From: an uncultured archaeon
GTDB taxonomy: Archaea; Asgardarchaeota; Heimdallarchaeia; Heimdallarchaeales; Heimdallarchaeaceae
Direction: 5' to 3'
Assembly: GCA_964549075.1 (NCBI GenBank)
Contig: CAZJUB010000014.1
Location: 1-49,795, forward strand
Length of the DNA stretch: 49,795 nt
Each line of letters starts with the position of its first letter. Positions within the stretch are counted from its first letter, which is position 1. The notes under the pieces were generated by a model that did not search any database, was not told where the DNA came from, and was given only the letters and a program-made list of their open reading frames with translations. The translations under genes were made by a program, and so were the position numbers. Below, one piece after another: positions 22,912 through 32,919 of this stretch.

Positions 22912-25900
22912 TTAACTTGATTTATTATCTTCGTTATCGTTACTTTTAACAAAAAAGTCAGATAGTTTAACCATTCCTTCATAATTTTTGTTTTTAGATT
23001 TTTTAGTTGTTTCTACTTCCTTAAATAATGTTTCTGCATTGTGTTTTATCAGTGCCAATCTATTTTTCAAATATTCCGATAACCCATATTTTTCAACTAA
23101 TCTCTCAGCCATTTCAAGATATTTTGTCACAGATTTTTCGTGAACTGTTAAATTCAAATTAGGCATTTTGCAATTAGGGCATAATTCATTAAGTGGTATT
23201 CGTCTAAATGTTCTGTTACATTTTGTACATCTAAATTTTTGTGAGCCAAATCTTCTCATATTTCCTATAAGATCAGGAATAAAATGGTTTACTATTATTA
23301 GTTTTGCTACATCATTTACATCAACAGATCTGACTAGACTCGCAACTTTGAGTTGGGCTTCAACTTTGTCTTCCATTGTTTCTAAATTTTTGTACGCTGT
23401 AGATTCAGGACCATCGAATATAGAAGAAGTTTCATGAGTATAATAAAAGCCCTCATAAGCTGTTTGATTATCTAACCTGTTTCGTATCATGTCTATTACA
23501 GGTAAAACAGATTTTGGTGAAGCTCGAGTTAAAGTGGCTTCATAAAAAGACAAAGGATACTTTACACAAGTATCTAAGTTATGCGATTCATCATCTACTT
23601 CATGAGGATTAAGATTAGCAACTAAGATTAAAGGTGCATCCATTTTACCTCCACGAATCTCAGGAAGATAAAATTTGGAGAAGTTAAGAAAAGCATCAAG
23701 AGCTAGGATGATAGAATCCTCATCACCATCACAGTTCACGGTCAAACAATTAATGGTATGAAAGTTGCTATACGCGTTTGATGAGTGATTCAAATCAACT
23801 GTTAAACAGTAAGAATTAGCTTTTTTCTTGAGAATCTTTATTTCAGATATTGAATCAAGAAAAAGATCTCCATGTTCTTTTATTTGGGTATAACTTCCAT
23901 TTTGCTTTCTAATCATTCTCTTCTCTGGAAAACCTTTATGAATCATTTTTCGAGCGTTTTCTCTCTTCTCTTTATGGTGTAACGACAAAAAATTTAGTAT
24001 TTGAAGATCTGGCCCTCTTATTGCTATTCTATGAACTATACTTCTCTTTGGAAGTTTTTGTAACTCGTAGTATCGTTTCAAAACTTTTTCACCAAAATGA
24101 GCAGCAGGAGAAGGTTTTCTTTTTCTACAGAATACACCTAAAGAATTTAATAATATTGTTAAGTCTGTAAGAAGTTTTTCTGAAACAGAATAGTAAAGGA
24201 TATTGGAATCAACACTAGGGATACTACCATCACCATCAATCATTGCAGATAGAAGAGCATATTTGTAATCATCTGGTAGGGAAAATATAAATGAAGGGAT
24301 TCTTTTAGTATATGCATTTTTTCCAATGCCAAAAGCATAAGCAAAAAGATACGCATGTATTCTCCCTGTATGAACCAATTGATGATTGTCTTTTTTATAG
24401 TATGGTTCTGAATTTAAACAATCAATTATCAATTGATTGAGATGCTTTCTTAAATCAGAATTTGGGACACTAAAATTAGTTTGATAACAGGTTTTTTCAT
24501 CCCTAATATATCCTTCAGAAATTAAATATCCGAGTAATTCGATGAAATCTTTATTAAAGTTAATATATGGTGAGACAAGATGATCATCTCTAGACATTCC
24601 AATACTTGCATCCAAAGGAATATCATCCCATTCAAAAACTCCTTCTCTTATTAAGATTTCAAGATGATTCAGAGGTATAGAGTTAAACCAATAAAAGTCC
24701 AAAGGATTCTTATATGGCTTAATTGGTAGTTTGTTAATTATTTGCTGCTTCAATCTTAATGGTAACCTATTTGTTGAGGTCAGCTCAGCTTTCTGTTTTT
24801 CTAAAGCATAGTTAATCAATTTTTCTTTCATCCATTGTCTAGCATTTCTTAAGCGAACATCTTGTTTGAAATCTTTGAATTTTTTAGTAGAAGGAAGATT
24901 TTCAGCCAATTCTTTTAGTACATTGATTTTTGAAGGTGGTTCTATTATGGGAATAGGTGGTTTTTTAACAATAGGAATATAATCACCAGTTACTAGCAGT
25001 TTTGCCTTGGTTTTAGTTAATAGTTTACTATTCTCATTCCAAATAAGCATATTATGATCTGGAGTAACTGTTAATGTTCTACCACTTTCAGTTCGTATTT
25101 TAATCCAATCATTACTTTCCCCCTTTATCCAATGTTTAATTGGCTGAAGCATAGATGTATTGTTTGTTTCATCTATGCTTATTACGCTCCAGTGAGGGTG
25201 AAGATTTTCTACAGTAACAGTTCCAAAATCATCAACAGTATCCAGGTTTGCACCTTTGGAAATTAAATTTTCAACTATTTCCTCAATATTTCTATGTATA
25301 ATCTTGTGTTTCTTACTATCCCAAACTACAACTTCTTCATCACCTGATAAACAATTTCTTCTTTTTGCTGCATGCCAATATGGATGAGCAAAATTCACTT
25401 TTGCTTTTGTAAATCCAATTATTCGTCCTGCTATTCCCGCTGAAGTATGAGGCGCTAGTCCAATTATTATTTCTCCTATCAAATCTTCTGATTTTTTAGC
25501 TTTGTAATAAGGAGGAAGCTGGTAGATTTTTTCTAAAAGCTCGTCTATGTACTGACTTACCTTTAGTAAGTGTTTTCCCCCTTCTTCATTAACAACAACA
25601 TCTTGTATTTTTAATTCAATAATTTGATTTTCATCTGTTAATGGTTTCCCATAAATATCAGTCACATATCCATTCTTAAGCAATTGTTCTATACTGATTT
25701 TTACTTCACTTGGTTTGAAATGTGTTAAGACAGCATCAGTGGAATCAAATCGTGTAGTTCCATCTCTATAAACAAAAATACCATGTTTAGATCTTAAAAT
25801 TCCTTTTTCTATTAATTCGGGGACTCTATTTCTATTCATTAATTTCTTTACAGCTTTTACATTATCTGGTAATAGACCGCCAATTGTCTGTTTTGCTTCC

Positions 25901-28083
25901 TTAACTCTATTGCCTATTGGAAAATCTGCTCTAATATATGTAGAAGCTTCTCTGTCACACCTTGGACAAATTTCTTGTTCTAACTCAATATTACAATAAG
26001 TACATCTATATGCAAAAACTGTAGATTCATTACATGTAACACAAAAAGAGGTATTCATGAACTTACCACACTTTGGACAATATCTATTTGCAATATCAAT
26101 AGCGATTGTTTTATTTTCAGATGCCTTATACAAATCCCTAAGTCTTCCACCTTTATCTTCTATCGGGAACAAGAGATGAACAGGTGGTTTCATTCTTCTA
26201 TCCTTTGCCTTTTCAGGTCTTCCCATTCTAGCTCCAGTATAGGTCTGACATTTATTTCTAAGCTTAATTTCATTTAGAGAATTAATCAAATCAATTACTT
26301 TATCTTCAGATCTTTCTATTGGTAAAAACTGTCCATTGTGAATGCCTAAGGAAAATAAGAGGGGAGAACTATAGATGCCAAATTGTAATTTATTGTCATG
26401 AACCTTATGAGGTATGAAAATCCACTCAAGAATCTCTTTGGCTTTTTCATCATATGGAATTTCTAAATTCTCTTTAGTGATAATCTGATTTTTCGCAATA
26501 AAATCTCTTAGAAAGATAAAATCATCAACTGAGATGTTCTCCCAATGGAAAGTATATTCAGGATGGAGAGGGATATGGAAAATCTTTGATATTGCAAAAG
26601 CTTCTTCTGGAGGGGGAATATTTTCAAAAGGATTTTTGATATAAATCTTAATTTTATTTTCTAATTCCTTTGTAAGTAAGTTTTTATCTTCTACAGCAAT
26701 ATCAGCAAATTGCGATCCTAACTCCTGAGACCACCACTCCTCACAATATCCTGCAGGTATTAAGTCATAACTATTCTGATTGAACTCTCCTACACCATAG
26801 AGCATGTCTCCTAGAAATAACACCTCGCTTATTTGTTCCTGTAATTTCTTGGCTTCTTTATAGGTATTGACTTTTATTACATCTCCATTTTTTAGTTTCA
26901 CAATAGGAGGATGAATAGAATCAACAGGCATTACAATTGCACCTTTACCTGGTCTCTCTGTTCTTACATGGGTACCACAAGCTAGAAAATCTTCTGTTAC
27001 TCCCATTAATGCAGGATGAATACCCATTCCTGCTAAACCTGTTGTTCTTGAACGACCATACCGAATTCGAAAACCTCCTTTCTCTGAAGGATGTGCAAAT
27101 ACTGGACGACCTGCAATTACATCTTTTATATATCCTTCATCTGAAAGTACTTCCAAATCTTCTTCATCTACAAAATCATCTTGAATTTCATCTTCATTAA
27201 CTGTATGACTTGCACTTTCATGTATTTTTATTAATTCTTGAAACCAATCCCACCCTTCTAGTTGATTCTCATTCACTTTTCGATATAATTTCTTTGAACG
27301 ACCAACAAGCCCATCATTAAATACAAGACAAGCACCACCTCTAAGGCGATTTGTCTCTATTCTTCTCAAATCTCTGTTTCCCGAGACCTCAACTTTATCT
27401 GTTGGTTCTCCAGTAATTTCTATCGTTAAGTTCTGTGCTGCAAATCTTTGTTCTTCCTTAGAAGTTGGTAATTGTAGATGGCTTACTCTGTTATATAACT
27501 CAAGTTCTTCAAGGTATCGTTCTACTTCACGCTGGTCTGGTTTGTATTTAGCTAAATCTAAATTCTTTCTTACATAATCAGCTAGTAAAACACTCATTCC
27601 CGCTGCTGTCCCTCCTGCAGAACGTATAGGTCCTGCGTAATATATAGCTAGATACTCTGAATCATCATCATTTTTCTTTATCTTAACTTTAGCTATTCCC
27701 TCAATAGGAGCAGCAGTTATACTCTCAGTTATAACAGCAAGAGAACTTCTAATTGCTTGTTCTGCAAGTTGTTCTTTAGTTCCTTGCATTAATTTTCCTT
27801 TACAGATATCTCCAGCAATCTTAAAGGCTACTTTTTCTCTCGATAAGTTTTGTTTTTCATACTCACGGATTTTTTTTCCTATTCCTGCTGGACCAATTAA
27901 ACCTTCAACTCTATCTGCAATATCCTTTGCGATTGGAATCTCCACTTCTGGTGCTGGATCTAAACCTATTTTTCTAGCTTTTGTTGCTATGTTATATACC
28001 TTCTTTATTTTTTTATTGAGCAAATCAAAATATGATTGAATATTGATTGATAGATTATTATTCTGAGTTATTTGATTCACCAT
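22912..28083 (-). CDS. polC: DNA polymerase D large subunit DP2, intein-containing
   Basis: AGPIRSAGGTA, GGFRIRYGRSR, RMGRPEKA, HAAKRRN/CDGDED, Zn fingers. Confidence 0.97.
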   Translation of the reverse strand: MVNQITQNNNLSINIQSYFDLLNKKIKKVYNIATKARKIGLDPAPEVEIPIAKDIADRVEGLIGPAGIGKKIREYEKQNLSREKVAFKIAGDICKGKLMQGTKEQLAEQAIRSSLAVITESITAAPIEGIAKVKIKKNDDDSEYLAIYYAGPIRSAGGTAAGMSVLLADYVRKNLDLAKYKPDQREVERYLEELELYNRVSHLQLPTSKEEQRFAAQNLTIEITGEPTDKVEVSGNRDLRRIETNRLRGGACLVFNDGLVGRSKKLYRKVNENQLEGWDWFQELIKIHESASHTVNEDEIQDDFVDEEDLEVLSDEGYIKDVIAGRPVFAHPSEKGGFRIRYGRSRTTGLAGMGIHPALMGVTEDFLACGTHVRTERPGKGAIVMPVDSIHPPIVKLKNGDVIKVNTYKEAKKLQEQISEVLFLGDMLYGVGEFNQNSYDLIPAGYCEEWWSQELGSQFADIAVEDKNLLTKELENKIKIYIKNPFENIPPPEEAFAISKIFHIPLHPEYTFHWENISVDDFIFLRDFIAKNQIITKENLEIPYDEKAKEILEWIFIPHKVHDNKLQFGIYSSPLLFSLGIHNGQFLPIERSEDKVIDLINSLNEIKLRNKCQTYTGARMGRPEKAKDRRMKPPVHLLFPIEDKGGRLRDLYKASENKTIAIDIANRYCPKCGKFMNTSFCVTCNESTVFAYRCTYCNIELEQEICPRCDREASTYIRADFPIGNRVKEAKQTIGGLLPDNVKAVKKLMNRNRVPELIEKGILRSKHGIFVYRDGTTRFDSTDAVLTHFKPSEVKISIEQLLKNGYVTDIYGKPLTDENQIIELKIQDVVVNEEGGKHLLKVSQYIDELLEKIYQLPPYYKAKKSEDLIGEIIIGLAPHTSAGIAGRIIGFTKAKVNFAHPYWHAAKRRNCLSGDEEVVVWDSKKHKIIHRNIEEIVENLISKGANLDTVDDFGTVTVENLHPHWSVISIDETNNTSMLQPIKHWIKGESNDWIKIRTESGRTLTVTPDHNMLIWNENSKLLTKTKAKLLVTGDYIPIVKKPPIPIIEPPSKINVLKELAENLPSTKKFKDFKQDVRLRNARQWMKEKLINYALEKQKAELTSTNRLPLRLKQQIINKLPIKPYKNPLDFYWFNSIPLNHLEILIREGVFEWDDIPLDASIGMSRDDHLVSPYINFNKDFIELLGYLISEGYIRDEKTCYQTNFSVPNSDLRKHLNQLIIDCLNSEPYYKKDNHQLVHTGRIHAYLFAYAFGIGKNAYTKRIPSFIFSLPDDYKYALLSAMIDGDGSIPSVDSNILYYSVSEKLLTDLTILLNSLGVFCRKRKPSPAAHFGEKVLKRYYELQKLPKRSIVHRIAIRGPDLQILNFLSLHHKEKRENARKMIHKGFPEKRMIRKQNGSYTQIKEHGDLFLDSISEIKILKKKANSYCLTVDLNHSSNAYSNFHTINCLTVNCDGDEDSIILALDAFLNFSKFYLPEIRGGKMDAPLILVANLNPHEVDDESHNLDTCVKYPLSFYEATLTRASPKSVLPVIDMIRNRLDNQTAYEGFYYTHETSSIFDGPESTAYKNLETMEDKVEAQLKVASLVRSVDVNDVAKLIIVNHFIPDLIGNMRRFGSQKFRCTKCNRTFRRIPLNELCPNCKMPNLNLTVHEKSVTKYLEMAERLVEKYGLSEYLKNRLALIKHNAETLFKEVETTKKSKNKNYEGMVKLSDFFVKSNDNEDNKSS
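23734..25353 (-). mobile_element. Intein (540 aa) with LAGLIDADG homing endonuclease in DP2
   Basis: Interrupts KRRN|CDGDED; begins CLSGD, block B TVTPDH, LLGYLISEG and LSAMIDGDG, ends LTVN before a +1 Cys. Confidence 0.93.
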
Positions 28084-28194: not shown

Positions 28195-28794
28195 GTGATT
28201 AGCGTAATTATAGCGACCAAGAATTTTAGGTTTTTGTATAGACTTAATGAAATTTTATCTGAAATAAAAGAAATCAAAACTAATCACATTTTACCTAATC
28301 AATTAATTCCTTCTGGTACAGATATTGTCATAACAACCGAAATTGAAAAGAAGAAAGTTAATTTCGAAAAATTGTTTGTTCCTAAAGCTTTCAACAGTTA
28401 TTATATATTTTCAAATATCTACTTATTAGCAAAGAATAAAAATTATTTTAATGAAATAATTGTTGGGATTGATCCTGGAAAAACAACTGGTCTTGCCGTC
28501 ATAGCCGAAAAAGAGACTTTATTAGGTAAAGGAGAATTTTATACAGCTGTAGACACTGTAAAAGAAGTAATATCAGTCTTTTTTAATGTTGAAACTTCTA
28601 ATCTCATAATAAAAGTTGGAGAGGGAGGTGGACAGATCAAAAATGAGATTGTAAAAAGATTAGATGAAATCTTTCATAATAAGGTTCCAATACAGATTGT
28701 TAATGAGGATTTCACTTCACAGAAAAAAGTAAATTATTTTGATTCAAAATTTCCTAAAAATATTCAATCAGCAATCCTAATTGCATTAAGATAA
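28195..28794 (+). CDS. RNase H-fold (YqgF/RuvX-like) nuclease domain protein
   Basis: VGIDPGKTTGLAV, IKVG.G, VNEDFTS, SAILIA. Confidence 0.7.
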   Translation: MISVIIATKNFRFLYRLNEILSEIKEIKTNHILPNQLIPSGTDIVITTEIEKKKVNFEKLFVPKAFNSYYIFSNIYLLAKNKNYFNEIIVGIDPGKTTGLAVIAEKETLLGKGEFYTAVDTVKEVISVFFNVETSNLIIKVGEGGGQIKNEIVKRLDEIFHNKVPIQIVNEDFTSQKKVNYFDSKFPKNIQSAILIALR

Positions 28795-28920: not shown

Positions 28921-29802
28921 ATGGATGGCACAGTGATGCAAGATAAAACTATTGATGAAATGATTACTGAAATTCAGACTCAATATAATATCGTAGGAAG
29001 AACAGAAGAACTTCGCAAATGTTTAGCTGCAAAATTAGCAAATAGGCATATTTTATTAGAAGGCGATGTTGGTGTCGGTAAGACAACTCTTGCACATGCT
29101 TTAGCATCTTACTTTACTCAAGATATAGAACGTGTTGATGGAGATGAGAGATATAGTTCTTCTAAATTAGTTGGACACTTTGATCCACCAATGGTCATTG
29201 AAATGGGGTATTCTTGGGACTCTTTCGTTACAGGTCCTTTAACAAAGGCTATGCAACAAGGTGCGATATTATTTCTAAATGAATTAAACAGAATGCCTGA
29301 AGGAACTCAAAATGTTTTGTTAGCAGCAATGGATGAAGGCATTATTATAATCCCAAAACTGGGTGATATAAAAGCAAAAGAAGGATTTTTCATAATAAGT
29401 GCAATGAACCCAGCTGAACTTGTTGCTACAACCCCATTAAGTGAAGCTTTACGAGATAGGTTCGTCTGGATAAGATTACAATATCAACCTGAAGAAGAAG
29501 AGAAGAATATTGTAAGTGTTCGTACAGGTATTACTGATGATAAAATTATATCAATAGCGGTCAAAATTGTTAGACAATCAAGAGATTGGCCTGATTTAAG
29601 AAGAGGTGCTTCTATAAGAGGTGCAATCGATCTAGCAGCTATCATTCGTTTTCTTGAAGTTAATGATATGGAATCTTGGGTTGATGGGTCAATAATGGCA
29701 TTAGCAACAAAAATCGAGTTGGAAGATGGTGTTGAAAGTCAAATTGAAGATGTAATTCGAGATATAGTTTCAAGTGTCTTCAAAGATTTAGATTTTTTAT
29801 AG
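28921..29802 (+). CDS. MoxR-family AAA+ ATPase
   Basis: LLEGDVGVGKT, LFLNELNR, QNVLL.AMDEG, AMNP, LSEALRDRF. Confidence 0.92.
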   Translation: MDGTVMQDKTIDEMITEIQTQYNIVGRTEELRKCLAAKLANRHILLEGDVGVGKTTLAHALASYFTQDIERVDGDERYSSSKLVGHFDPPMVIEMGYSWDSFVTGPLTKAMQQGAILFLNELNRMPEGTQNVLLAAMDEGIIIIPKLGDIKAKEGFFIISAMNPAELVATTPLSEALRDRFVWIRLQYQPEEEEKNIVSVRTGITDDKIISIAVKIVRQSRDWPDLRRGASIRGAIDLAAIIRFLEVNDMESWVDGSIMALATKIELEDGVESQIEDVIRDIVSSVFKDLDFL

Positions 29803-29851
29803 AAGATGGGAGCGGCGACCAATTAGAAGATTTCCAGAAGCCTTTCGTCTT
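29793..29851 (+). other. Putative -1 programmed ribosomal frameshift signal (T TTT TTA, TAG, downstream hairpin)
   Basis: Heptamer 29793-29799 is in register with the MoxR frame; the -1 frame is open from 29748 into the VWA ORF; stem 29803-29816/29840-29851. Confidence 0.6.
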
Positions 29852-29861
29852 TAGAGGAAAG

Positions 29862-30881
29862 ATGGATAAAGGTAGACTACTTGAAGCTGAAATTGTTGCA
29901 GGTAAAAGGAATCCTTCAGTCTATTCTAGTCTATCAGAGGGAATGAGTTATTATGAGATTAAGAAGCAAACAGAATTAGCTATTGACGTAGACAATATGC
30001 CAGCAATTCAAGGTATGGCTATATCAAACAAATTTGCTGTAGCAGAAGCTCTTAACTCAAAAAAAGGCTACACAATGATAGCTCGAAGAGCTTCAAAAGG
30101 TGACAGTAGTGCCCCTGAATTATTTTTCATGTTACGTACAGCTTTAGATGATAGAATGCGTCCTGTATTCCGTAGACTAGCCAGACAGGTGATAATGACA
30201 ACTGCTACAGGCATTACCAGTCAAGGTATCAGAGGAGAGGTCTTTGAACAAACCGAATATGAAATAGGATTGGATGAATTTGATCTTGATGAAACCATGG
30301 AACGCTTTCTTGAGAATAGGAGTCGTATTCTAAACACTGAAGACATTGTCAGTTTAGAGAGAAAGGAACGAACGAAGACAGCTGTATTAATGTTTGATAC
30401 TTCTGGTTCTCTTTATGGGGAACGATTTACTACTGCTGCACTAACTGTTGCTGTTATGGCCCATAATCTTGCTAGAGACAATTTCAGTGTGGTTTTATTT
30501 AACACAAAAGCCTACACAATAAAACGAATGAAAGAGAAGTTGAATTCAGACGAGCTAATTAACCGTATTCTAGAAAGTGAAAGTGCTGGCTATACAAATA
30601 TCGCAGAAGGATTAAGGTTTGGAGGACTTGAGTTAGATAAAATAAAGAAGAAAAATAAATTTGGGGTTCTAGTTACTGATGGTGCGTTTAATAGAGGTGG
30701 AGATCCCCGACAACTTTTGAAGTACTTCCCTAAACTTCATGTTATTTCTCTTCCAAGTAAGCATGATTGGGGAAGACGTGTTTGTAAAGATCTTGCTAGA
30801 TTAGGTAGAGGAAAATATGCTGAAGTATCAAGTCATAAACAAATACCAAGAATTCTTATGAAACTCCTTAGAGAATTATAA
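29862..30881 (+). CDS. von Willebrand factor A domain protein (MoxR partner)
   Basis: MIDAS DTSGS, GYTNI, LVTDG; DLDETM motif; frame open upstream to 29748. Confidence 0.9.
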   Translation: MDKGRLLEAEIVAGKRNPSVYSSLSEGMSYYEIKKQTELAIDVDNMPAIQGMAISNKFAVAEALNSKKGYTMIARRASKGDSSAPELFFMLRTALDDRMRPVFRRLARQVIMTTATGITSQGIRGEVFEQTEYEIGLDEFDLDETMERFLENRSRILNTEDIVSLERKERTKTAVLMFDTSGSLYGERFTTAALTVAVMAHNLARDNFSVVLFNTKAYTIKRMKEKLNSDELINRILESESAGYTNIAEGLRFGGLELDKIKKKNKFGVLVTDGAFNRGGDPRQLLKYFPKLHVISLPSKHDWGRRVCKDLARLGRGKYAEVSSHKQIPRILMKLLREL

Positions 30882-30894
30882 ACAGGTGTAAAAA

Positions 30895-32919
30895 ATCCAA
30901 TCTAGCCAGTCAAGTAAAAAAAGACGGAAAAAAAATATTCCGTATCTCGGTCCAAATCTTTTATACTATTGTTATGATTGTTCTTTACCAACAATTGGTA
31001 TTAGTAAGTGCCCAATCTGTGGTAAAGATGTAAATAAGGTTCAACTTACACCTCCTTTTGACGTAAGACCTGCAATGCAAGAAGAAGTCCTAAAGATAAA
31101 GAATTTAATAGAAAATAACTTTGGAAAGAATACGAATATAATACAAGAAGAAGACATTATTTTACTCAACCATATTGGGTCTGAAGATCATATGGATGAG
31201 ATTATCTTTTATGGTAATAGTATCGGTACAAGAAGGTATGATCTAAAAAACAACAACTGGCAAATCAAACTTAATTCTAATGGACTATCACTGTTAGATT
31301 CAAAACTAACAAAGCGATGGGTAAAGGTAGATCAAGTAGCAAAAGAGAAAATATCTGAAGGAGCTAATGTTCTTATTCCAGGCGTAATTGATGCTGATTC
31401 AGAAATTAAAAATGGTGATTATATTGCAGTTGTGGATGAACAGTTTAATGTTATTGCTGGCGGAATTGCTAGAATAGATGAGGTGGACAGAAACAAACAA
31501 ACCAAAGGCGTATACGCTAAAAATTATCTGGCTGTGGGAAAACGGTATAAACCTAATAGAAACAATTTAACTTGGGAGGATATAATTGAGTTAAATAAAA
31601 AGGAGCTAGAGAAACTAGAAAATATTGCTATTGAATTCATAATTAAAATCAAGAATGATTTAGGTTTGCCAATAATGGTCTCTTACAGTGGTGGAAAAGA
31701 TAGTTTGGTTACATATGCGCTTGTCAATAAAGCATTACCTGAGACAGATTTCAAAGTCTTATTTGTTGATACAGGGATTGAGTTTCCAGAAACTGTAAAA
31801 TATGTTGAAGAAAGTAGTAAAAAACTCGGTTTTCATGATAAGTTAATCATTGAAAAAGTTTCAACTGAAGTTTTTTGGAAAGCATTCGAAATGTTTGGTC
31901 CTCCTGGAAGAGATTTCCGTTATTGCTGTAAATTTGCCAAATTAGCGCCTATCAAGAGAGCTATTGATAAAGTATTTGAAGGCAAACAATGTATAAGTTT
32001 TGTTGGACAAAGAAGATACGAATCATTTCAAAGAACAGGATCAGAGGTATGGCAAAATAGTTATGTCTCTAATCAGATTAATGTTTCACCCATTCAAAAT
32101 TGGAATTCTCTTATGATATGGATGTACATTAAATGGAAAGATTTACCTTATAATCCTCTTTATGATGTAGGTTATGAACGAATTGGTTGTTGGGTTTGTC
32201 CTTCTTCTAATATGGCACAATTAAGTATTCTTAGAGAAAATCATATTGAATTATACGAAAAACTTCGTACATCTGTAAATAAATGGAAAGACGAAAAAGG
32301 TTTATCGGAAGACTACTGGCGATATGGTCTTTGGAGATTCAAGAATATACCAAAAAAAATAATCAGTTCTTTATCACTTAATCTAAAAAATATGAAGAGT
32401 ATATCCCCTGTGAATGATCTTAGTACTCTTCAGATAGAATTAAGTGATTGCGTTACAATGCCGTTCAGTATTATAGGTAATTTTTCGAATGAGATCAATT
32501 TACAGAAGATTTACAGTGCTTTAATCATAATAGGTAGAGTACAATTAAATCAAAAACTAGGTTTCCTTAGGATTTTTAACAGAAAATACTCTATTGTTGT
32601 TTATTCGGATGGTACATTCAAAATCAATTTTCGTAAACAAGCAGACCTTACCTCTCTAGCTGTGCGTAAAGTTATAGAAAACTTTGTCTATGTTGTTTTG
32701 AGAGCGGTAGAATGTATCAATTGTAAGTTATGTGTTGGGAGATGCGATGTTGGTGCTCTAAGTATTCAAGATAATGTCATTTACGTAGACAAAGAAAGTT
32801 GTATACAATGTAACCAATGTTCAGAAGTTTGTCCAATTGTAACTATAGTTCATAGAAATCTAAGAGATAAGGTCAAAAACACCATGATGGAAAGTGAATT
32901 ACAACAATTTTTAAGTTGA
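30895..32919 (+). CDS. PAPS reductase family protein with N-terminal Zn ribbon, PUA and 4Fe-4S domains
   Basis: SYSGGKDS, DTGIEFPET, CCK..K..P, RIGCWVCP, GANVLIPGV (PUA), C-terminal ferredoxin; conserved N-terminus lies upstream of ATG 31075. Confidence 0.85.
   Translation: MQSSQSSKKRRKKNIPYLGPNLLYYCYDCSLPTIGISKCPICGKDVNKVQLTPPFDVRPAMQEEVLKIKNLIENNFGKNTNIIQEEDIILLNHIGSEDHMDEIIFYGNSIGTRRYDLKNNNWQIKLNSNGLSLLDSKLTKRWVKVDQVAKEKISEGANVLIPGVIDADSEIKNGDYIAVVDEQFNVIAGGIARIDEVDRNKQTKGVYAKNYLAVGKRYKPNRNNLTWEDIIELNKKELEKLENIAIEFIIKIKNDLGLPIMVSYSGGKDSLVTYALVNKALPETDFKVLFVDTGIEFPETVKYVEESSKKLGFHDKLIIEKVSTEVFWKAFEMFGPPGRDFRYCCKFAKLAPIKRAIDKVFEGKQCISFVGQRRYESFQRTGSEVWQNSYVSNQINVSPIQNWNSLMIWMYIKWKDLPYNPLYDVGYERIGCWVCPSSNMAQLSILRENHIELYEKLRTSVNKWKDEKGLSEDYWRYGLWRFKNIPKKIISSLSLNLKNMKSISPVNDLSTLQIELSDCVTMPFSIIGNFSNEINLQKIYSALIIIGRVQLNQKLGFLRIFNRKYSIVVYSDGTFKINFRKQADLTSLAVRKVIENFVYVVLRAVECINCKLCVGRCDVGALSIQDNVIYVDKESCIQCNQCSEVCPIVTIVHRNLRDKVKNTMMESELQQFLS

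Follow-up and report, generated by a model that had tools for sequence, protein, structure and literature searches.

A programmed -1 frameshift very probably joins two adjacent genes, one for a MoxR-like AAA+ ATPase and one for a protein with a VWA domain, in a 49,795-nucleotide (nt) stretch of an uncultured Heimdallarchaeaceae genome (contig CAZJUB010000014.1; hereafter the window), and the same assessment applies to the family of loci to which this pair belongs. The candidate shift site is the heptamer T TTT TTA at the end of the MoxR frame. The core idea had been raised in an earlier note made from the window alone, and comparison of orthologous loci now supports it strongly, through the phase of the two frames, the retention of T TTT, and the selection acting on the codons between the genes. 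As far as such a comparison can tell, the mechanism is family-wide in Asgard archaea.

In the mechanism that we propose, most ribosomes would halt at TAG 29800 and release a 293-residue ATPase, while a fraction would slip back by one base on T TTT TTA (29793-29799), read a linker of 21 codons, and continue in the VWA frame. The product would run in the order AAA+, linker, helical domain, and VWA domain with its metal-binding MIDAS site, and its computed length of 653 amino acids (aa; 293+21+339) agrees with the roughly 650 aa proposed earlier. For the window's clade, the predicted trans-frame junction peptide is ..DLDF-L/F-IEDGSGDQLEDFQK, and its predicted Hod counterpart is of the type ..RF-L/F-IDK... 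When the coordinates were re-derived, the arrangement described in the earlier note was recovered: the MoxR open reading frame (ORF) ends GAT TTT TTA TAG, with the heptamer in register, and the VWA gene occupies the -1 frame, open from 29748. The -1 frame reads ..FFIEDGSGDQLEDFQKPFVFRGK up to Met 29862, then MDKG.., and it contains no ATG, GTG, or TTG between 29748 and 29861. The GAGGA reported just upstream of ATG 29862 is likewise present, at 29854-29858.

For the comparison, one genome per species was scanned with a 25-sequence alignment of the VWA protein, and the best 80 of 146 relatives were studied as loci. A MoxR gene lay directly upstream on the same strand in all 79 loci with upstream sequence (tblastn); L020, whose sequence begins inside the VWA gene, was left out, and the 79 loci plus the window provided 80 junctions with 77 distinct junction sequences. 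The VWA protein has 130 near-length homologues, the names given being Heimdall-, Kari-, Hod-, and Thorarchaeota. The junction phase was -1 in 70/80 cases and +1 in 10/80, and in no case were the two genes in the same frame. Among the 70 junctions in -1 phase, the stretch between the MoxR stop and one fixed codon at the conserved VWA start came in 10 different lengths between 65 and 101 nt, and the frame was always kept. In one locus (L062:641-1557), MoxR matched as two pieces in different frames, reflecting either an internal frameshift or an assembly error.

The slippery site itself was retained across these loci. A canonical X XXY YYZ heptamer was found in 59 of the 70 -1-phase junctions (A AAT TTT, G GGT TTT, and A AAT TTC included); T TTT TT(A/C/T) stood immediately 5' of the stop in 49 and anywhere in the overlap in 52, and the other 11 junctions had GA-T TTT at the stop or one codon earlier. 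T TTT at synonymous sites was retained in 70/70. The codon before Phe ended in T at every one of these junctions, where gene-wide synonymous usage in the same genes would give 43.9, and the Phe codon was TTT in 69, compared with an expected 47.0. All 15 Hod-type loci used CGT at the first of these codons, in genes where the T-ending share of the synonymous codons for that residue averages 0.30. Together, these counts indicate that conservation of the predicted slippery site goes beyond the demands of the protein sequence. At L031:3920-3950, the 0-frame stop by the heptamer has been lost and MoxR is longer by five codons; T TTT TTC is retained, as is the open -1 frame.

By itself, the window is compatible with a chance origin of the heptamer. 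Its GC content is 33%, and its 29 ORFs of at least 150 aa contain 77 in-register heptamers, with 2 of the 29 terminating on one; TTTTTTATAG occurs three times against an expected 1.02. Of these heptamers, this is the only one after which the -1 frame stays open for at least 100 codons (360 codons). The excess over chance comes from the comparison with other genomes and not from the window itself.

We then turn to the linker, which only shifted ribosomes would read. In the window's clade (25 sequences), diversity moved from MoxR-frame to VWA-frame third positions exactly at the stop. For positions +3 to +61, the ratio of nonsynonymous to synonymous differences per site (pN/pS; Nei-Gojobori) was 0.30 in the VWA frame, compared with 1.48 and 1.04 in the MoxR and the third frame, respectively; as references, the MoxR 3' end in its own frame gave 0.18 and the VWA body 0.08. 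Since pS within clades was 0.6-0.75, silent sites have largely turned over. In 15 of the 26 loci of this clade (the window among them), no start codon precedes the Met; for the 14 of these that were in the alignment, the linker pN/pS was 0.23 in the VWA frame versus 1.41 and 0.97 in the others. In the Hod clade (12 sequences), the linker had a ratio of 0.20 and the 42 codons that follow it 0.06, with 1.2-4.3 in the other frames. Together, these ratios indicate that only in the VWA frame do the linker codons 5' of the ATG evolve as coding sequence.

In 13 of the 70 loci, there was no ATG, GTG, or TTG from the opening of the frame to the conserved VWA N-terminal motif; L078 and L079, in which the alignment register is off and an ATG lies at +65, were excluded from this count. 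The first canonical start after the MoxR stop came at 605 nt in L066, 269 nt in L068, 146-182 nt in L052-55, and 191 nt in L073 and L075-77, and initiation there would be expected to remove 50-200 conserved residues. At the position of the window's Met, the residue was not Met in about 30 of the 70 loci and was L, I, F, or Y in many annotated homologues, and many annotated N-termini reach 5' of it (..PFVFRGKMDK, ..PYVFRGRMDK, ..SSMRGKMDK, ..PPQFGR(M/L)TPEK). In lineages without a VWA start codon, no way of making the full VWA protein other than the predicted frameshift is apparent. The Hod-type VWA orthologues P0105-P0120 are annotated at 279-292 aa from an internal Met, with ~45-60 conserved N-terminal residues absent; these short annotations are a systematic artefact, because the start codon is missing.

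Relatives in which both parts form a single chain were also sought, as the earlier note had proposed. A word-index search for longer proteins returned none, but an exhaustive HMMER search found them, with 639 matches; about 30 of the best 150 were 519-711 aa long, with the VWA part C-terminal, and all 11 long proteins that were scanned had an N-terminal AAA_5 and a C-terminal VWA domain. Residues 1-292 of one of them, P0161 (711 aa), align with the window's MoxR over its whole length (52% identity) and terminate in ..SNSDFF. After a gap of ~75 residues between ATPase and VWA, residues 368-707 match the window's VWA frame at 31% identity, starting from VFRGK, which lies 5' of the window's Met. 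Both domains were present in 78 of 83 relatives of P0161, and the names among these relatives were Njordarchaeales (P0279), Promethearchaeota (P0280), Bathyarchaeota, Nitrososphaeria, and one Thermoleophilia bacterium. These natural AAA_5-VWA chains share the domain order and the junction landmarks (..DFF, linker, FRG..) of the predicted product, but they consist of one open frame without recoding, and their linker has ~75 aa versus 21 here. Because the frame is single, every subunit of the natural fusions carries VWA.

Downstream RNA structure divided the family. The earlier note had proposed a hairpin with arms at 29803-29816 and 29840-29851, and this was not borne out. The fold of 29800-29864 had an energy of -11.7 kcal/mol, compared with -11.44 ± 2.62 for shuffled sequences (z -0.10; 84/200 shuffles at least as stable), and among coding windows taken from the MoxR and VWA genes, the window's 45 nt past the stop ranked at quantile 0.596. 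When 18 sequences from the window's clade were folded jointly with RNAalifold, the energy was -0.28 kcal/mol and no helix appeared at the proposed place. Judged against coding windows, the 45-nt fold had a median z of -0.83 in the window's clade (26 loci) and -0.47 in the +1 clade (10 loci), i.e., no signal in either. In contrast, the 44 sister-clade loci outside the window's clade had a median z of -2.42 against coding windows of the same genes, with 28/44 at or below the 5th and 19/44 at or below the 1st percentile of fold stability.

Nine Kari-type loci shared a 13-pair helix that was 86.3% paired, compared with 70.4% after shuffling (reached by 0/500 shuffles), with 25 double-change cells versus 10.0 (0/500) and 36-50% pairing in slid controls. 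In 12 Hod loci, an 8-bp stem that was 92.7% paired began 7-8 nt past the heptamer; covariation support for it was weak, with two pairs showing double changes and 26/500 shuffles matching the score. The Baldr loci and L059-61 had perfect stems of their own at the corresponding place. A second Kari-type set of six loci yielded no consensus (alifold only -1.11 kcal/mol), each sequence folding well alone, and we leave it out of the covariation evidence. Predicted covarying hairpins 7-8 nt after the heptamer are present in the sister clades only. The alignment of orthologues advised in the earlier note bore out the conserved phase, heptamer, and linker, whereas stem covariation was absent from the window's own clade. 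There, the adjacent stop may act as the stimulator, assisting the shift by slowing the A site.

How else might the two frames be expressed? The alternative that survives best is that these are two ordinary adjacent genes, with VWA made only from ATG 29862 via GAGG and the heptamer a by-product of a Phe-Phe/Leu C-terminus in an AT-rich genome. The ATG position is retained in 26/26 loci of the window's clade behind GAGG, and the Arg codon at this element is AGA in 18 and CGA in 8 of them; AGG, CGT, CGC, and CGG, which make up 31.5% of Arg codons gene-wide, occur there in 0/26. Gene callers annotate 339-aa proteins, the window's clade has no stimulatory structure, and heptamers are as frequent in the window as described above (77 in 29 ORFs, 2 of which end on one). 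Separate genes would nevertheless leave unexplained why the 20 codons 5' of the ATG are under purifying selection in the VWA frame only, even in the 14 start-less loci, and why T TTT is kept at synonymous sites in 70/70 junctions. Nor do they fit with the aligned residue being other than Met in about 30/70 loci, with the 13 loci that have no start codon, with an FRG motif 5' of the Met that belongs to the in-frame fusion P0161, or with linker indels that always preserve the frame. As the whole explanation, we consider two separate genes to be quite unlikely.

Separate initiation may still operate alongside the predicted frameshift. Since the ATG is kept in 26/26 clade loci and GAGG is kept at synonymous sites, a free VWA protein is probably also made in the window's clade, starting from ATG 29862. 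This pattern suggests free VWA as a third product there, with a Shine-Dalgarno element inside the coding sequence of the linker. Of the two products that the earlier note had named, free MoxR and a fusion, the fusion is thus supported by the comparison, and the list itself was probably one product short for this clade. A purine-rich GAGGAGGGGGATCC, which we take to be similar to the full archaeal Shine-Dalgarno sequence, was seen about 5-20 nt past the MoxR stop in L014-L016, L024, and L025.

A second alternative has VWA and linker made as a chain of their own by (re-)initiation at a non-canonical codon at the MoxR stop, e.g., AUA 29799-29801, which would couple the two genes without fusing their products. 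In the window, as in Hod-type loci, an ATA does overlap the stop (TTA TAG); P0021 has its initial M where the window has Ile; and a TTG two codons ahead of FF is conserved in the +1 clade. However, most of the window's clade has CTA at this place (TTC TAG) and Borr/Sif loci have TTA; these two codons are not near-cognates of AUG, and re-initiation would account neither for the synonymous conservation of T TTT nor for the hairpins 7-8 nt after the heptamer. The natural in-frame fusions also show that the fused architecture exists. Initiation of this kind is, in our judgment, very unlikely to be the explanation.

The +1 clade just mentioned comprises 10 loci (L043-L051 and L057; e.g., L046:3917-3960). 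Their MoxR frame reads ATT GGN AA(G/A) TTT TTT CGG, with the T6 run kept, and their VWA frame reads TTG .. FFGP, with the TTG two codons before FF in 10/10; in several of these loci, the VWA frame opens exactly at that TTG. The clade appears to be a phase-changed lineage using its own TTG start, although a +1 shift on TTT TTT CGG is possibly the alternative.

Transcriptional slippage would lead to the same protein outcome as a ribosomal shift: with one extra U inserted by RNA polymerase at the T run, normal translation would continue into the VWA frame. T runs of 6-8 are present at 52/70 junctions. In 11 loci, however, the run is only T4-T5, and the Baldr-type site is A AAT TTT; known transcriptional slippage takes place on longer runs, of about 9. 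The site moreover keeps the X XXY YYZ register throughout and adjoins the stop, and structured RNA 7-8 nt downstream is the layout expected of ribosomal -1 shifting. We therefore regard polymerase slippage as highly improbable and favor a shift made by the ribosome. That a sequencing or assembly indel in the T6 run split one fused gene, of the kind that exists elsewhere in frame, can be dismissed as having practically no chance of being right, since the same layout, two frames with a stop right behind the run, is seen in 70 loci that were assembled independently, three of them (L018, L019, and L070) on complete chromosomes, and the 80 junctions comprise 77 distinct sequences.

Several considerations weigh against a -1 frameshift at this locus and in this family. 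Support for a fused protein is wholly comparative. The loci are the best 80 of 146 relatives, and counts over them share ancestry, without phylogenetic independence. In-register heptamers are common in the window, with its GC content of 33%. Conservation of the C-terminal D/R-F-F/L for a protein-level reason could itself yield T-rich codons; such conservation leaves the synonymous T before Phe unexplained. Separate initiation of VWA is plausible and could be the main route in the window's clade, where the efficiency of frameshifting could be low because there is no detectable stimulatory structure. Finally, the +1 loci have what looks like their own TTG start, which means that a -1 shift is not indispensable to the family.

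As to the identity of the proteins, the ATPase matched AAA_5 with 78.8 bits (cut-off 22) and AAA_3 with 57.7 bits (cut-off 27) in Pfam. Its Walker A motif is GDVGVGKT and its Walker B motif is hhhNE (LFLNELNR; 29265-29290, MoxR residues ~117-124), with NE rather than DE in 74/74 orthologues; the canonical Walker B has Asp where this ATPase has Asn. Residues 1-120 of the VWA protein form a helical N-terminal part and residues ~163-339 the VWA domain, and the MIDAS residues D179, S181, S183, T245, and D273 were invariant in the 25-sequence alignment. Its structure model had a mean pLDDT (predicted local distance difference test) of 85.6, and the best fold matches were to the NorD VWA domain in NorQD complexes (9qhd_G, E 1.3e-8).

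Among the closest known systems are NorQ-NorD and CbbQ-CbbO, pairs of a MoxR AAA+ ATPase and a VWA adaptor. The best single-domain PDB match of the ATPase was NorQ (9qh4, 51.7 bits), with CbbQ (5c3c) at 37.9 bits, and here too a co-oriented gene for a VWA protein with the MIDAS residues is adjacent. Identity is low, however, at 13-17% in fold alignments. NorQ and NorD, like CbbQ and CbbO, are encoded by separate genes, each with its own start. We saw no nor or cbb genes next to the pair. From these matches, the gene family is NorQ/NorD-like and not chlD. The locus is not chlD because the NCBIfam models for BchD-ChlD and cobaltochelatase score far below their cut-offs (TIGR02031 BchD-ChlD, 19 bits against 499.55; TIGR02442, 26.1 against 779.45). 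The Pfam Mg_chelatase match was limited to ATPase residues 24-65 (E 1.1e-5), and no chelatase large subunit was seen among the neighbors that were checked. By analogy with BchD/ChlD in chelatases and with NorD on NorQ, fusion would put the VWA adaptor on the MoxR ring.

Frameshifting in chlD, which the earlier note had invoked as a precedent, is real: the available part of PMC9227772 describes bacterial and archaeal chlD genes that each give an AAA+ subunit and an AAA+-VWA subunit. The same part reports that -1 shifts are commoner than +1 and that AT-rich slippery sites are accompanied by downstream structure (PMC9227772). The present locus resembles those genes in that the AAA+ frame ends and a shift would continue into a linker and VWA, one locus supplying the small as well as the medium subunit; it differs in that the ATPase is of the AAA_5/MoxR type and not the Mg_chelatase type, and in that the 0-frame stop sits directly on the slippery site. 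The heptamer is identical to that of HIV-1 gag-pol. There, U UUU UUA serves as the slippery site for tandem -1 slippage, with a downstream stem-loop. That system is viral and uses eukaryotic ribosomes, whereas the present one is cellular and archaeal, has the stop as the next 0-frame codon, and has no detectable structure in the window's clade.

Two further candidates were tried and rejected. Midasin/Rea1 likewise combines AAA_5-type modules and a MIDAS/VWA domain in one polypeptide, and it was the top PDB match by summed score (137 bits), but it has six tandem AAA modules versus one here, and its total adds up six repeats of 24-26 bits, each of them lower than the single-domain score of NorQ. 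Midasin is mentioned in general terms only in the available part of PMC10732040. Membership in a defence system was rejected as well, PADLOC giving weak generic AAA matches only (≤23.7 bits). The available part of PMC7911831 deals with an unrelated phage tail-chaperone frameshift.

The earlier note did not recall a frameshift of this kind from Asgard archaea, and our literature search, whose coverage did not extend to the primary papers and supplements on frameshifted chlD, found no report for MoxR-type ATPases or for Asgard archaea. To our knowledge, few cellular frameshift sites have been established in archaea.

Table 1. Coordinates of the genes and of the elements at their junction in the window.
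Feature	Position	Strand	Basis
MoxR-like AAA+ ATPase ORF, 0 frame, 293 aa	28921..29802	+	ORF call; Pfam matches to AAA_5 and AAA_3
TGA opening the -1 (VWA) frame	29745..29747	+	frame free of stops 29748-30878
Slippery heptamer T TTT TTA, candidate -1 shift site	29793..29799	+	X XXY YYZ register of the MoxR frame
TAG ending the MoxR frame and the free 293-aa product	29800..29802	+	directly 3' of the heptamer
Linker codons IEDGSGDQLEDFQKPFVFRGK, 21 aa, predicted to be read only after the shift	29799..29861	+	selection in the VWA frame; FRG motif aligns with P0161
GAGG, possible Shine-Dalgarno element for separate VWA initiation	29854..29857	+	4 nt 5' of ATG 29862
VWA/MIDAS protein ORF, 339 aa from ATG, -1 frame relative to MoxR	29862..30881	+	VWA, VWA_2, VWA_CoxE
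Hairpin proposed earlier, arms 29803-16 and 29840-51	29803..29851	+	unsupported as conserved or unusually stable

Around the pair, a 199-aa ORF at 28195-28794 has a sub-threshold DUF460 match (23.8 bits; cut-off 28), and a DUF460-like ORF lies 5' of MoxR in 28 sequences (27 loci and the window), some Kari-type loci included. The 614-aa protein encoded at 31075-32919 combines PUA, PAPS-reductase, and 4Fe-4S dicluster domains and is found 3' of the VWA gene only in the near clade. On the minus strand, 22912-28083 holds a 1723-aa ORF whose translation, by eye, resembles the large subunit of DNA polymerase II (PolD) with an intein-like insert; landmarks of the insert are CLSGDEE.. and a LAGLIDADG-like LLSAMIDGDGS. 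The DUF460, PAPS-reductase/PUA, and PolD neighbors are conserved in the near clade only, so there is no family-wide third gene.

It seems to us an evenly balanced question whether this is an old, phylum-wide Asgard recoded operon in which a -1 ribosomal shift at the last codons of a NorQ-like AAA+ gene sets the share of ring subunits that carry a tethered VWA/MIDAS adaptor. If so, recoding would be the sole way in which the VWA protein is made in Hod-, Borr/Sif-, and Baldr-type loci, and within the family a single stoichiometry problem would have been solved genetically in three interchangeable ways: by a -1 shift accompanied by either a hairpin or a neighboring stop codon, by a phase change combined with a TTG start of its own, and by a permanent in-frame fusion, as seen in Njordarchaeales. 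Such a natural series could be used to ask how AAA+ and MIDAS modules came into one chain. If real, the frameshift would also extend the chlD principle, that of free AAA+ and AAA+-VWA subunits from one locus, to a second AAA+ family, and it would represent conserved recoding in the closest prokaryotic relatives of eukaryotes. In addition, the comparison corrects annotation, many Asgard VWA gene calls being cut to 279-292 aa or begun at arbitrary codons, and the heptamer and stop, with or without a hairpin, would provide a compact, sequence-defined element with which to study frameshifting by the archaeal ribosome.

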